This document shows, piece after piece, positions 57,001-63,000 of a stretch of DNA of 64,000 nt (the stretch's first letter is position 1; each line of letters opens with the position of its first letter). Source of the DNA: Bacilli bacterium. GTDB lineage: Bacteria > Bacillota_I > Bacilli_A > RFN20 > CAG-826. Made by a program: the position numbers. The stretch covers positions 94,967 through 158,966 of the forward strand of contig JAGBLE010000010.1 in NCBI GenBank assembly GCA_017635565.1, in the 5' to 3' direction.

Positions 57001-60000
57001 TCTCCATTATCTTCAAGATATAGATATTTTGCTTTTCCGATTGCTTGTAAAAAATCTTTACCATCTTTTCTTTCGTGAACAATGACATTATTTGGAATAT
57101 TTTTATAACCGAGTTCTTTAATGTCATTACCGCAGTAAAGATTAAAAGTATAACTTTGAAGTCTTTTTGCTAAAGAGAAAATGTTATCTGGTTTACGGAA
57201 ATAATAAAAGCTTCCCGCGTAGGTGATATTGTTATTTTCTTCTTTAACTGAATTAATGATTTTTAGTTCTTCTTCTCTAAAGAAACCCGGTAAAACATAT
57301 TTAACAAATTTATTTTGATATTCAGGATATTGCTTACAATATTCTTCGTAAAAAGTAGGGAGTAAGAAAGCGTACTTACATGTATTTAAACATTTCTTTT
57401 CAATTTGAATTAATTTCTTTTTTGAAACCTTTCTAAGCGAGCCATTAGAGAAAAATGGATCAGCGTATAAAAAGTACTGCGCAAGGTGAAATTTTTTATT
57501 AAGGCGGAAAGAAGCGATATGTTCACTGAAATATCCAGATATTGAAATGACTCCATCGTAATGATTCCTTTTTATTAACGCTTTCCCTTTTCGATAAAAA
57601 AGATGCGAATAATAAAGTTGAGCATCATAAAAAAATGAATAAATTTTCATAAATGATTTTCTAAAGAAAGACATCAATTTATTCTTCTTAAAAGTATTGA
57701 TAAAGAAGCAATTAACTTTTTCGTTAAGTGTATATTTCTTATTTTCGCCTAAAGAAATGACATCACAACAAATATCTTCTTTGACTAATTCATCAATTAT
57801 TCTTTGAGTCACTTTTGAAAGCGGCGATTTGAAAGGATAAAAATATGGACAGATAACTAAATATCTTTTCATATCTAATCTATTTAGCGGATTTAATGAT
57901 TTTCACTAGCCAATATCCAAATATTGGTCCGAGTGAATTAAAGAGGATGCAGAACACTAAATTGATAAATGTATATCCATTAATGTGATTACCAAATCCG
58001 AAATAAAACATATTAGCGACACAGTGTTGGAATCCTGAATAAACAAAAACGAAAACAAAGAAAACTAATAAGATGATTCCAAGTGGTTTTAATCGATTTA
58101 AGTTGAACGCTTTTACCGCTAAATAAACACATAATCCACATAATGTTGATTTGATGAATAAAGATAAATAGTCATTAAAAGTAAATAATGTAGTTCTTAT
58201 GTTGCACGCATTATTCACGGTTACCATAATATCCATATCTTTGAAGATAAAATAACATAAATACCCTAAAGAAAAGGCACCAATCGCGTTTCCGATAAGC
58301 ATAACTGGTAAAGAAATATAAAATTTATTTTCTTGTTTTCCTTCATAAATATTTCCAATTTTTCCAGTATATAAAGAGAAAGAAAAAGTGCAGACAAGAA
58401 ATAAGCCAACTGCAAAAAGGAGAGATCCTAACGCTTTTCCGAGTTCTCCAGAAACGTAATGAGTTAGTAAAATATAAAGAAAACCTCCTAGTCCAATTGA
58501 TAAACCAGCAAGGATTCCTTTTAAAAATGTCATTAACTGATATTTCATCATAATAATGATAAATTATTTATCGTTATTTGTGTTTGTAATTTTTATAGGT
58601 TGGATCAATGATAACGAGTTCTGAATAATTGTCAATTTCAGTTACATCGCTTTTTAAGCATTCTCTAACTTCAATTTTGAAATCTTTTTTGCACATAGTG
58701 AGAGGAACATTGTCCCAATATTTTTCTTTTCCTCCACGAGAATGATAAACCTTATCGATGTCTTCTCTTAATTTGGTTGAATCTTTTTCATTCCAATAAG
58801 AGATGCCAATCATGTGCCAGCAATCTTCTCCTCCAATGGAGACTCGATCAATATAACCATGTTTTTTAAAGAAACACCAGTCATCAGTCTCACTCACGTG
58901 AGCGCCTAAATAGTTGGAACAATATTGATATTTGGTGATGACTTCTGGATTACTGACCACTAAATCAGCTTCACAAATATAGCATCTGTCAATGATATCT
59001 CTAGCCACATACATACTAGAAATATTATTCGATTCGTTATAGATTGGATTCTCGATAAATTTAAGAGTTGGATATTTTTCTAATAATTCTTGGAATTGTT
59101 CTTTTAAATAGCCAACAACAATCGTGATATTTTTAATATCTTTTGCGTATAAAGCATCAAGAAGAGTGTCGATAATCCTCACTCCATTAACTTTCACTAA
59201 TGGTTTAGGGGTATCTAAAGTAACAGGGACCATTCTACTACCAAATCCAGCCGCAATAATAATTGCTTTTCTAACTTTATATGGCTCAAGTAACTTATAT
59301 CCCTTTTCAGTTAATTCAATCTTTTTGTTTTTGTGAAGGATGATGACATCATCTTCTACGAATTGATTGAATAATTTGTTTGTGGTACCAAGAGACAAAG
59401 TAATTCCGTCTGCGATTTGTCTTTGAGTCAAAACTTTCATATTGTTTTGCTCGATGTAAGTGAGAAATTGAAATTGAAAACGTGTGAGTTCCATTTTTTC
59501 TTCCGCCTTTCCTTTTGAAATCTTTTTTATTCCTTCTTTTAATAAATCAAACCCAATCTTCGCGATTAAGTTAATAAACAAAATAATTGTTGAGACCACT
59601 GATTCCATTTCATATATCGCTTGATTTTCATAAGTGGTAATAGAAACAGCAAGAGGTTGAGTGCTATAAGTTGCTAAAAAGCTTACTGCAGAAATTGTAA
59701 TCATGGAGTTAATGAATAAATATGAGAACATTTCCATGATTGTTTCAATCGTATTAGGGACCATAACCTTAAAGAAAAGGCTTATTTTTGATATTCCTAA
59801 TGTGTCAGCAACTGTTTCATAATTTTTATCAACTTTATTGAAAGCGTTTTTTGCCATCAAATATGGTGAAGAGAAATAGTGAATAATATTGACCACCACC
59901 AAGATGATAATCGTTCCAGAAAACCATCCATCAGTGTTATTAAACAAAAATACATATCCAATACCAAGAACAAGTCCAGGAACCGCTAAAGTGGCGATTG

Positions 60001-63000
60001 ATAATAAATGTAATGGTTTAGCTAATTTTCCTTTAGCGCGAGTGGATAAATATCCAGTGAGATAAGCAACAATTGTTCCAAATAAACCCGCTAATAAAGA
60101 AATGATTAAAGAATTTGATAAGAATTTAACAATAGAAACACTGCTATATGGAGAAAATGCATCTTTATAATTATTAAATGTAAAAGTCATATCTCCAGGA
60201 AAACGAGTGACAAACGAAATAGCGATAAATGATACTTGTGGAATCATTAATATGACTGCCACCAAAATAACGACAACGAGTCCAATAGTGGTAAAGGTTT
60301 TACTTGGTTTGATGTTTTCTTTTCTCGCTGCTCCTTCACCATTGTCTTTATTAATAACATCAAAAATGAAGGCAACAAGCGCAGGAAGAAGTAAGACTAA
60401 AGAAATAACTGCGCCTCTACCATAATTAAAAGAGGAAAGAACTTCTTCATATAAATACATTGGAAGAGTTTTAACTTTTCCTGCTACTTCCATTGGAAGT
60501 CCATAATCAGCAAAAATCAAAGTGAAAGAAGCAAAGAAAGCGGATATTAATGTTGTTTTTAAATACGGAAGAGTGATTCCAAAAAAACTATTAATTCGGC
60601 TTATTCCAAGAGTGTTACTCGCATCATATATGCTTCTATCTTCATATAAAAAGGCATCATATATAAGTAAGAAAGCTACCGGAAAAGAAAAATTGACTGA
60701 TCCTAATATCAAATCAAAAAATCCTAATCCATCGTATTTAATTCCAAATAGTTGATCTAAAAACCCGCTTGTGCCAAATAAAGATCTCACACCTAAACCG
60801 ACAGAAATAGTAGGAATGAGCATTGGGATGGTTAATAGAATAATAATCCATTTTTTCCCTTTTATTCTTAATCTACTTAAGTAATAGGCCACGATAGTTG
60901 CTAAAATCGTGGTAATTAAAGAACCTGCTAAAGAATAAATAATGGAATTACCAATTGCTTTATAGAAATTTTCATCATTAAAAACATAATTTAAGTCATT
61001 ACCTCCAACTTTAAAAAGCATGAAGATTAATGGTAAAACCAAAAACAAAAAGAGGATAGCAATTAATCCTAACTGTAAATATGTTGATGGTTTTATCTTC
61101 TTAAAAAAGTTTTTCATTATTTTGTACTATCAATAATTGCTTTTGCTTTTTCATCCAAATGCTTAACAACAAACTTTTTCACAAATTCATTTGCGGGATG
61201 TTTGTATATGTTATTTGGTGTGTCGTATTGGACAATATGACTATCGTTCATAACGATAATTCTGTCAGACATTGAAAAAGCTTCTTCTTGGTCGTGAGTG
61301 ACATATATCATCGTCTTATTTAATTTCTTTTGTAAATCTTTTAGTTCTTTTCTAAGAGACATCCTAATATCTGCATCAAGAGCCGCCATCGGTTCATCAA
61401 AAAGAATGATATCTGGATCCATGACTAAAGTTCTGGCAATGGCTACTCGTTGTTGTTGTCCACCACTCATTTTAGTTGGTTTCTTGCGTGCAAAATCAGT
61501 TAAACCAACAATATCAAGAACTTCATCCACTCTCGTTTTAATCTCTTCTTTTGGAACGTGATGAGCTTTTAAAGCATAAGCAACATTATTCCAAACATTC
61601 ATATTTGGGAATAAGGCGTAATTTTGAAACACTAAGCCCATTCCTCTTTCGCTTGATTTTTTGTTTGTGATTTCTTCTCCATCTTTACTAATTGAACCTG
61701 AATCACAAGTTTCAATACCGATTAAAATCTTTAATAATGTGGTTTTACCACATCCAGAAGATCCTAATATTGAAACGAATTCTCCTTGATTAATATCAAA
61801 AGAGATGTCTTCCAAGACGATTTGTCCATTAAATTTTTTGTTAACATTATTAACACTGATTTTGCTTAAATGTTCCATGCATCTAATAACTCGTTTTTAT
61901 ATTTTGGGTCCAATAAATTTTTCATTTGGACATAATCCACTCCATAATCGCTTGGTGATTTCCAGTTTTCGACTTCAGCAGGAAGAGCGTATTCGCTTTT
62001 ATAAATTGTTTCTGGAACAATTTTGGAATTATCAAGATAATTAACGTAATCAAAGAAATAATTATATACTTCTTTAACTTCTGGCCTCTTTTCTTTTCCA
62101 TTTATCATTCCCATTGTGTATAAGGTATATGGAGATCCTTCTGAGAAATAAGTGATTCCAATATCACTATTCTTGTTAGCATATTCAACAGCTTGGAAAT
62201 GCATACCTAAACCAACCGACACTGATTTACGGTCTACGCCTTTAACTGGTCCAGATCCTGAAGAAGACCATTCTTTCACGTTGTTATCAAGTGCCCTAAA
62301 ATAATCTAAAGCAGCGTCTTTTCCATATACACTTGCATAACCATTATAGAAATAATATCCAGTACCACTACTTTTTGGACTTGGCATAATGATTGAATCG
62401 CTTGGTAAGGAAAGTAGGTCTTCATATGAAGTTGGAACATTATCTCCAAGCATGCTTTTGCTATAAACAATACATCCAGCTTCTTTATCTTGAATATGAT
62501 ATTTTTTATGTCCTTTATGAATTGTGCCATCATTTAAAGTCACATCTTTTTGATATTCAAGAACTTCATCAACATAATGAGAAGTGTCATAGTCAGAAAG
62601 GTCAGCAAACAAATTTGAATTTCCAGAAAGCAAGATTTCTGCATTAGTAATTTCAATGCCAACGAAAATGTCACACTCGGTTCTTGTTCCTTTAGCCTGA
62701 AGTTCACTCATAAGACTTCCGGTTGTTTTACTAACGATTTGGATATTGTAATCAGTAAATTTACTTTTGAGTTCTTTATTATAAAGTTGAATTCGATTAT
62801 CCTCGTGAGCAGTAAAAATAAAGATTGTTGGTTTTGATGAGCCACAACCTGCTAATGATGTAAGCGTTAATAAAGAGAATGGAATTGTTTTAAGTAATTT
62901 GTTCATTTTTCGATTTACCTTTTGTTCATGTGAACACTATTTTATCAAAGATTTTGAACAAATCAATAGAAATTTTTTAATAATAGGTAAAAAAGAAAAA

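Follow-up and report, generated by a model that had tools for sequence, protein, structure and literature searches.

A 64,000-nucleotide (nt) stretch of the genome of a Bacilli bacterium of the CAG-826 lineage (GenBank assembly GCA_017635565.1, contig JAGBLE010000010.1, positions 94,967 to 158,966; hereafter the window) carries on its minus strand three tightly overlapping genes of an ATP-binding cassette (ABC) importer, the last of which encodes, in a single open reading frame (ORF) of 847 amino acids (aa), a transporter permease, a winged helix-turn-helix (wHTH) module and a cytidylyltransferase of the LicC type (Table 1). The gene for the substrate-binding protein (SBP) overlaps that of the ATPase by 13 nt, and the ATPase and fusion genes share one nucleotide (TAATG); the coordinates and the overlapping layout given in an initial annotation of the locus were exactly reproduced. 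A search for intrinsic terminators between 57800 and 63700 was negative. Pfam searches of the fusion ORF returned BPD_transp_1 twice (E 2.5e-18) up to about residue 530 and NTP_transferase at residues 617-714 (E 2.9e-10), along with NTP_transf_3; the SBP matched SBP_bac_6 (E 1.4e-13). With two BPD_transp_1 domains, ABC_tran and an SBP in one operon, the system is a type I binding-protein-dependent ABC importer. Hydropathy and positive-inside analysis yielded 12 transmembrane (TM) helices and an N-terminus rich in Lys and Arg, so that both ends of the fusion protein, and hence its enzyme domain, are placed in the cytoplasm. The two-module, 12-TM permease proposed at the outset is thereby borne out, and the even number of helices keeps the enzyme inside the cell.

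Table 1. Features of the fusion operon, its promoter region and the adjoining genes in the 64-kb window.
Feature	Position	Strand	Basis or remark
SBP lipoprotein gene, 346 aa	61866..62906	minus	lipobox LAGC; organophosphate-binding SBP_bac_6/8 clade
ABC ATPase gene, 253 aa	61117..61878	minus	Pfam ABC_tran 1.8e-38
Fusion ORF, 847 aa	58574..61117	minus	permease + wHTH + LicC-type enzyme
Permease part, residues 1-525	59543..61117	minus	2x BPD_transp_1, 12 TM helices
Lys/Glu-rich linker, residues 526-541	59495..59542	minus	includes Shine-Dalgarno-like GGAAAGGCGGAAG at 59512..59500
wHTH module, residues 542-612	59282..59494	minus	starts at Met542 (ATG 59494..59492); recognition helix SLGTTNK
LicC-type cytidylyltransferase domain, residues 613-847	58577..59281	minus	1jyk alignment, catalytic residues
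Promoter-like site	62939..62966	minus	-35 TTGATT 62966..62961, 16-nt spacer, extended -10 TGn-TAAAAT 62947..62939; consensus scan
Operator-like perfect palindrome TGTTCAcaTGAACA	62923..62936	minus	3 nt after -10 box, 17 nt before SBP start codon
FNT-like channel	57880..58551	minus	Pfam/NCBIfam; short, 217-223 aa
GT-B glycosyltransferase, 380 aa	56730..57872	minus	AF2 model + Foldseek
Asp aminotransferase type Ic	55535..56737	minus	NF053594, 562 bits, above cutoff
FnlA/FnlC/CapF-like UDP-L-FucNAc genes	54244..55437, 53082..54272, 51977..53158	minus	Pfam, NCBIfam

The same 847-aa protein, identical throughout, is encoded on seven contigs, and the fusion architecture, judged by equal length and Pfam layout, is common to at least 120 protein clusters of 54-100% identity. 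Of fused genes, 63 instances (60 unique) were inspected as DNA, and among the 60 unique homologs none has a stop codon or frameshift between the permease and the LicC-like part; together with the identical protein on seven contigs, this rules out an assembly or frameshift artefact and answers the call for a search of related genomes for the same fusion. The SBP-ATPase-fusion trio was present in all nine loci taken from species-representative genomes, which are rumen or gut metagenome-assembled genomes (MAGs) of Erysipelotrichaceae, Bacilli, Anaeroplasmataceae and Christensenellaceae; a metagenome scan contributed a further 80 loci, and rumen MAGs are the source of many homologs. When 1.84 billion representatives were searched exhaustively, the full-length fused form was scarce at the 50% identity level; most matches were either permeases some 530 aa long or wHTH-LicC proteins of around 300 aa, which indicates that the fused form is a rather small branch within two far larger families.

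An unfused operon of four genes (SBP, ATPase, permease and wHTH-LicC) is found in the cultured Christensenella timonensis, in Paludicola sp. MB14-C6 and in a Christensenellaceae MAG; there, a permease gene of 529-541 aa is followed by a wHTH-LicC gene of 296-298 aa whose start overlaps the permease stop. As comparison with these operons indicates, the fusion gene of the window is the merger, by loss of a stop codon, of the last two genes of this widespread arrangement. Free wHTH-LicC proteins are very common (at least 8,000 candidates at E <= 1e-10), and the names attached to their matches in the databases include 'CTP--phosphocholine cytidylyltransferase' and 'NTP transferase domain-containing protein'. 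Full-text literature searches returned no description of a permease-LicC fusion, an ABC-LicC operon, an HTH-LicC regulator or the biochemistry of PhnS2T2U2, a putative importer of 2-aminoethylphosphonate (AEP). The fusion had been put forward as an undescribed architecture, which holds as far as this literature goes, but its novelty is narrower than first stated, since a common four-gene operon has been fused and the wHTH-LicC protein is already an annotated family. By this comparison, what is new is the gene fusion inside a common, unstudied operon and not a new kind of transporter. Two other proteins of the same permease family (P0296 and P0333) are fused at their C-terminus to an SBP_bac_6 domain in place of the enzyme.

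In a search of solved structures, residues 615-842 of the fusion protein aligned end to end with Streptococcus pneumoniae LicC (1jyk; 226 residues, E 4e-27), which, with the significant NTP_transferase match, upholds the LicC-like C-terminus described initially; the stretch IVVGYLKEQF, once cited as identical in the two proteins, agrees with IIVGYLKEQF of LicC at nine of ten positions. The LicC nucleotide- and metal-binding residues G14, G16, R18, K28, D107, E216 and D218 are all kept and are invariant across the fused family, as are W136, Y190, W191 and D192. At other positions of the LicC pocket the enzyme differs, with Glu716 in place of D105, Ser in place of Y85 and of Y89, and Val in place of R129. 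Because every nucleotide- and metal-binding residue is retained, the domain is very probably catalytically active. A different role can be conceived for it, that of a non-catalytic ligand sensor which would gate the transporter by trans-inhibition and so stand in for a missing part of the ATPase: the 253-aa ATPase covers positions 4-236 of the 353 of the PhnT2 profile, without the C-terminal regulatory domain of some 100 residues that is usual in this family of nucleotide-binding domains (PhnT2/MalK type). With the catalytic residues invariant across the fused family, and with unfused orthologs that the same operon encodes as ordinary soluble enzymes, we regard such a sensor as very improbable.

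Homology and catalytic residues together assign the enzyme to the LicC family and not to that of PntC. The AEP-specific Tde-PntC (6pd1) matches the window domain over its N-terminal half only (residues 2-111, E 1.7e-10), and neither Ppm nor a class-V aminotransferase, which would mark a PntC locus, was found among the genes scanned at 36.6-63.7 kb. A PntC-type counterpart of the fusion does exist in P0267 (L099:2822-5446), a permease-wHTH-enzyme protein of 32% identity whose enzyme domain matches 6pd1 at E 7e-25 and LicC at E 1e-5; its operon runs NTP_transferase-SBP-ATPase-fusion, and 36 nt ahead of the leading gene stands the palindrome GTTCAAAACATGAAC. Judged by these matches, the permease-wHTH-enzyme design occurs in a LicC and a PntC flavour, of which the window has the former. 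Outside ABC operons, the closest relatives of the window enzyme are fusion proteins with choline/ethanolamine kinase, arranged in several ways. P0247, P0249 and P0311 (loci L083-L090 and L097) combine, in 850-892 aa, a wHTH, a LicC-like domain, a choline/ethanolamine kinase and a second LicC-like domain, in that order; their HTH is without the SLGTxNK motif and their upstream regions are without the palindrome.

As to what the transporter carries, the best NCBIfam matches of its three parts are to the PhnS2/T2/U2 models of the putative AEP importer (TIGR03261/03265/03262), at scores far below the equivalog cutoffs: 111 against 393 bits for the SBP (phnS2), 339 against 458 for the ATPase (PhnT2) and 336 against 593 for the permease (PhnU2). 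The window proteins are therefore relatives of this importer rather than members, and homology does not fix the ligand. The nearest solved relatives of the SBP are AfuA (4r72), which binds sugar phosphates, and a binding protein for pyridoxal phosphate (PLP; 6wce) (PMC4546632, PMC8427247). Thr150 of AfuA, which lies in the SSGT motif and holds the phosphate, is conserved in the window SBP, as is the sugar-binding His205, whereas the sugar-binding Asp206 and Glu229 are replaced by Phe and Thr, respectively. The SSGT-type motif is kept among the operon-linked SBPs, with locus L009 as a clear exception, and the SBPs of fused LicC-linked operons carry additional aromatic residues beside it, where the PntC-linked SBP differs. 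A choline kinase gene was found near none of 67 fused or split operons (flanks of 6-10 kb), compared with 9 of the 27 loci whose LicC-like genes are all free. The organophosphate-binding relatives of the SBP, the lack of a nearby choline kinase and the sister PntC-type fusion all fit the proposal, made at the outset, that a phosphorylated headgroup is imported; they point to a headgroup that would already bear a phosphate or phosphonate together with an ammonium group and would thus bypass LicB and LicA. From this evidence we estimate the likely substrates: phosphocholine is given about an even chance, AEP a considerably smaller one, and phosphoethanolamine and any other compound each a slightly smaller one again.

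Were AEP the substrate, the operon would scavenge it and convert it to CMP-AEP for a phosphonoglycan or phosphonolipid, a PntC-like route fed by import and not by phosphoenolpyruvate (PEP) mutase. AEP is abundant in the lipids of rumen ciliates, and many of the homologs come from rumen MAGs; moreover, all three ABC parts score best against the AEP importer models, and a PntC-type version of the fusion exists. In addition, Glu716 occupies the position of LicC D105, at which Tde-PntC has Glu (Glu104). It had to be dropped as a marker of AEP, however, since relatives fused to choline/ethanolamine kinase carry Glu there too. At the second discriminating position the enzyme has Asp, as does LicC, and it keeps W136, Y190 and W191; it falls in the LicC clade, with a full-length match at 4e-27 as opposed to the N-terminal match to PntC at 1.7e-10, and the aromatic residues next to the SBP pocket distinguish the LicC-linked from the PntC-linked proteins. 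With the transporter scores all far under their equivalog cutoffs as well, we hold AEP import to be rather unlikely.

The transporter could also import unphosphorylated choline or ethanolamine, or glycerophosphocholine, with a kinase or GDPD encoded elsewhere, in which case the operon would serve a conventional Lic pathway whose LicB is replaced by an ABC transporter. The SBP_bac_6/8 families do include binders of cationic amines (polyamines, thiamine), and in C. timonensis the genes for a patatin-like lipase and a GDPD glycerophosphodiesterase follow directly after the unfused operon (L017:8879-10662). A retained SSGT phosphate motif of the AfuA type argues against such a cargo, as does the absence of choline kinase within 6-10 kb of any of the 67 operons, even though the enzyme clade is rich in kinase-LicC fusions; we consider this alternative unlikely. 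The lipase and GDPD genes hint at host or dietary phospholipids as a source of headgroups.

The segment of some 70 residues that joins permease and enzyme in the window gave consistent Pfam matches to HTH_45, MarR_2 and HTH_24 (E 5e-4 to 1e-3), at 19-20.5 bits and thus below the gathering cutoffs of 21.9-27. In unfused relatives, the orthologous segments exceed the thresholds (35.9 bits at L009 and 45.5 bits at L010), and close homologs carry Pfam HTH family records, in line with the winged-helix-like joint of the initial annotation. Upstream of the SBP gene, the promoter-like site is followed by a perfect palindrome (Table 1), and an additional TGTTCA half-site at 62960..62955 abuts the -35 box; this layout recurs at L001-L006, L015, L022 and L023. 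The pattern GTTCA-N1-5-TGAAC occurs once in the 64-kb window, at the operon promoter. Of 47 unique regions upstream of SBP genes, 16 contain the palindrome, mostly at equal distance from the start codon, against a background of 10 in 988 kb (about 170-fold enrichment), and two of these 'background' sites themselves belong to related promoters, those of the PntC-flavoured operon and of a free wHTH-LicC paralog. The density of half-sites per 160 bp falls from 1.72 ahead of SBP genes to 0.60 ahead of free wHTH-LicC genes and to 0.14 in the background, and the palindrome accompanies the operon through lineages whose SBPs share 27-80% identity. Since the wHTH is the sole domain of DNA-binding type that travels with the operon, it most likely binds this TGTTCA-N2-TGAACA palindrome over the promoter and so autoregulates the operon.

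Leaders of another form were observed in a clade of fused genes that is without an ATG at the internal start described below (L010, L024, L034, L038, L041, L055, L061, L072 and L073): about 100-160 nt upstream of the SBP start, a -10 element is followed by GTTCAG, 22-30 variable nt and TTGAAC, a pair that may represent either a split operator or a hairpin in the 5' RNA. A riboswitch or other known RNA in the window's leader was discarded; the Rfam match to snoRNA Z175 at 62864..62937 (plus strand; 31.6 bits against a threshold of 43, E 0.069) overlaps the operator and is almost certainly due to chance in AT-rich sequence.

Met542, the first residue of the wHTH module, stands at the start-codon position of the unfused wHTH-LicC gene. 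The purine-rich sequence that had been noticed ahead of an internal Met was located at this point: the Shine-Dalgarno (SD)-like GGAAAGGCGGAAG ends 5 nt before the ATG, with a predicted anti-SD pairing energy of -9.9 kcal/mol that falls in the top 0.8% of positions in the gene, is the best among its 18 in-frame internal ATGs and beats 84% of the 43 ORF starts scored in the window. It is built of G-ending codons that are rare in this genome of 31% GC (synonymous resampling, p = 0.03; 0.002-0.04 in the window's clade). Of the 60 unique fused genes, 31 have ATG as the aligned codon and represent 11 lineages down to 50% identity; the 29 non-ATG genes all fall in one clade, where this codon has drifted to eight different ones. 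A free wHTH-LicC paralog lies within a few kb of 15 of 28 non-ATG loci and of 1 of 29 ATG loci; likewise, the recognition-helix motif S[LVMI]G..N[KR] is kept in 25 of 29 ATG fusions, in none of 28 non-ATG fusions and in 21 of 33 free copies, and helix 2 is deleted in four members of the non-ATG clade. As loss of the ATG, gain of the paralog and degeneration of the helix coincide in one clade, they constitute a single evolutionary event and not a statistical sample, and we accordingly downgraded an analysis that treated the ATG/paralog pattern as 57 independent observations (Fisher p = 2e-5). The ATG, the paralog and the recognition helix nevertheless change together as would be predicted if a soluble, DNA-binding wHTH-LicC were required, which suggests that a soluble enzyme-repressor is made, by internal initiation or from the paralog. 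The separate HTH-LicC product envisaged in the initial annotation thereby gains comparative support, from an ATG present in 11 lineages, a strong SD and a loss restricted to the clade with the paralog.

In the same non-ATG clade, genes for a free wHTH-LicC, a membrane-anchored Phosphodiest protein (PF01663) and an APC-family permease lie upstream of the fused operon (L010:4369-7774, as well as L024, L034, L035, L048, L061 and L063); this module may be a second route of headgroup scavenging. In the window itself, tblastn returned no homolog of LicD, Phosphodiest or the APC permease.

The regulatory evidence can be read in another way, in which the wHTH is a structural spacer or docking module that does not bind DNA, the palindrome serves an unrelated regulator, and Met542 with its purine-rich linker is a relic of the former gene boundary without internal initiation. 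In keeping with this, the window HTH lies under the Pfam thresholds, linkers rich in Lys and Glu are inherently purine-rich, the synonymous test is non-significant for many homologs and the comparative association comes down to one clade. Several observations speak against a mere spacer: the wHTH is the only conserved domain of DNA-binding type in the operon, the palindrome tracks the operon across divergent SBPs and precedes the PntC-type operon and a free paralog too, the recognition helix is kept (25 of 29) except where a free paralog exists, and the SD, made from rare G-ending codons, is the strongest internal site of the gene. The spacer reading is doubtful on balance, if far from negligible.

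Taken together, these data lead us to favour, with moderate confidence, a covalently fused importer-wHTH-LicC system that imports a phosphorylated headgroup for CDP or CMP activation and is autoregulated through its wHTH. In the proposed scheme, the lipoprotein SBP would bind a small zwitterionic phospho-headgroup outside the cell, most likely phosphocholine and possibly phosphoethanolamine or AEP, and the transporter would bring it in already phosphorylated, so that neither the LicB permease nor the LicA kinase would be needed. At the transporter exit, the tethered enzyme would use CTP to form the CDP- or CMP-activated donor, which a LicD-type transferase encoded elsewhere in the genome may then place on a surface glycan or glycolipid. 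The wHTH would autoregulate the operon at the promoter palindrome, probably as part of a soluble wHTH-LicC supplied by internal initiation at Met542 in the window's lineage and by a separate paralog in one other clade. The sequences establish the architecture, the topology, the conservation, the catalytic residues, the operator motif and the comparative pattern of ATG, SD and recognition helix; the substrate, metabolic trapping or the direct channelling first suggested, DNA binding by the wHTH and internal initiation are what we infer. More tentatively, and with less than even confidence, one gene might give two products, a tethered, kinase-free trapping enzyme (forming CDP-choline or CMP-AEP) and a soluble, Met542-initiated repressor that senses product or substrate at TGTTCA-N2-TGAACA, making the operon a self-contained module of import, activation and feedback for phosphocholine-type surface decoration in uncultured gut and rumen Bacilli.

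A number of findings weigh against this scheme. On the side of the substrate, the transporter scores fall well short of the equivalog cutoffs, Y85, Y89 and R129 of the LicC pocket are not conserved, Glu716 takes the place of D105 as in Tde-PntC, and the GDPD encoded beside the C. timonensis operon would free choline, not phosphocholine. On the side of regulation, the wHTH of the window stays below the Pfam gathering cutoffs, the synonymous SD test is non-significant in about half of the ATG-retaining genes, linkers rich in Lys, Glu and Gly are purine-rich regardless, and loss of the ATG, the paralog and the degenerate helix coincide in what is effectively one event. Finally, neither LicD nor any other evident headgroup transferase was found in the 64-kb window, and the 380-aa neighbour of the operon appears from its model to be an ordinary GT4-like sugar transferase.

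A link to surface glycans emerges from other fused operons. At L015, a LicD gene abuts the fusion gene within a Wzx/Wzy/glycosyltransferase (GT)/FnlABC cluster, and LicD is encoded near four further fused operons (5 of 67 in total). Downstream of the window's operon lie the FNT-like channel, the GT, the aminotransferase and the CapE/F/G-type UDP-L-FucNAc genes (Table 1), as had been reported. The GT and UDP-L-FucNAc genes are in keeping with a glycan link, but this neighbourhood is not conserved with the module. The FNT, 380-aa GT and aminotransferase genes adjoin the module in no other lineage, so they were dropped as components and are taken as local context. The 380-aa protein is a near-orphan with three homologs, and its model has a GT-B fold of the GT4 type; resembling GT4 sugar transferases and not TagF or LicD, it was ruled out as the headgroup transferase. 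The FNT channel and the aspartate aminotransferase sit in what is apparently a single glycan operon. Two other minus-strand enzymes, the FnlA-like UDP-GlcNAc dehydratase (54244..55437) and a UDP-sugar dehydrogenase (47604..48947), have an N-terminal HTH_3 match (Pfam E 6e-4 and 1e-4, respectively), and HTH-type N-termini on sugar-nucleotide enzymes thus recur in the locus alongside the wHTH-LicC. Beyond about 47.6 kb the window continues into nucleotide salvage genes (36625..46899) for a uracil/xanthine permease, uracil phosphoribosyltransferase (UPRTase), phosphoribosyl pyrophosphate (PRPP) synthetase, three other phosphoribosyltransferases, a GMP-synthase C-terminal protein and a PnrA-type nucleoside ABC importer, a block consistent with a reduced genome that depends on salvage.

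Phosphocholine and AEP decorations of the cell surface shape how hosts recognize bacteria, and their textbook supply runs through LicB and LicA. The present family points to a second, kinase-independent supply route, widespread in gut and rumen Firmicutes including the cultured Christensenella and Paludicola, that is concealed by its current annotation as 'iron(III) transport system permease' or 'ABC transporter permease subunit'. The system to which it compares most directly is Lic-1 of S. pneumoniae and Haemophilus influenzae (LicB permease, LicA kinase, LicC and LicD). The two share full-length LicC homology and catalytic residues, some fusion members lie beside LicD and glycan clusters, and the end use, a CDP-activated headgroup for surface glycans, would be common to both. 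Unlike Lic-1, the fusion operon is supplied by an SBP-dependent ABC importer of the organophosphate-binding type, and its enzyme bears an N-terminal wHTH, is covalently joined to the permease and is altered at pocket positions D105, Y85, Y89 and R129; as it lacks licA and licB, the window locus does not belong to the Lic-1 type. For glycan decoration, a survey of phosphorylcholine pathways published in 2023 gives LicB/LicA as the sole route and lists no ABC-importer route (PMC10434233).

PntC (Tde1415, 6pd1) occurs next to, or fused with, PEP mutase or AEP transaminase, enzymes of biosynthesis (Rice et al. 2019, PMC6697681). The window enzyme resembles it in its LicC-like fold, in the predicted CTP-dependent activation of a small amino-phosphate or -phosphonate, in the tendency to fusion and in the Glu at the position of Tde-PntC Glu104; it differs in that its partner is an importer and in that the match is confined to the N-terminal half. 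With the importers of AEP (PhnS2T2U2/PhnSTUV), sugar phosphates (AfuABC) and PLP (P5PA), the operon shares the type I family, the single 12-TM double permease and the SSGT-bearing SBP, but its scores lie below the equivalog cutoffs, the AfuA sugar-binding residues are replaced, the ATPase is without the regulatory domain, and the operon partner is an anabolic cytidylyltransferase in place of catabolic genes of the phnW/phnX type. For the enzyme-repressor, whose formation by internal initiation is predicted from the conservation of the operator and from the way internal start and free paralog alternate, an analogy may be drawn with BirA and NadR. BirA is a wHTH joined to a biotin-AMP ligase, and NadR an HTH joined to a nicotinamide mononucleotide (NMN) adenylyltransferase that is functionally coupled to the PnuC transporter. 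Like them, the wHTH-LicC would combine an N-terminal (w)HTH with a nucleotidyl-transferring enzyme, act at an operator in the promoter of its own pathway and couple uptake to trapping, a comparison meant as analogy and not as homology. Unlike them, the fusion enzyme is physically joined to its transporter, its soluble form would require internal initiation, and the permease-enzyme fusion offers a rare natural tether of a biosynthetic enzyme to an ABC importer, well suited to questions of trapping and channelling.

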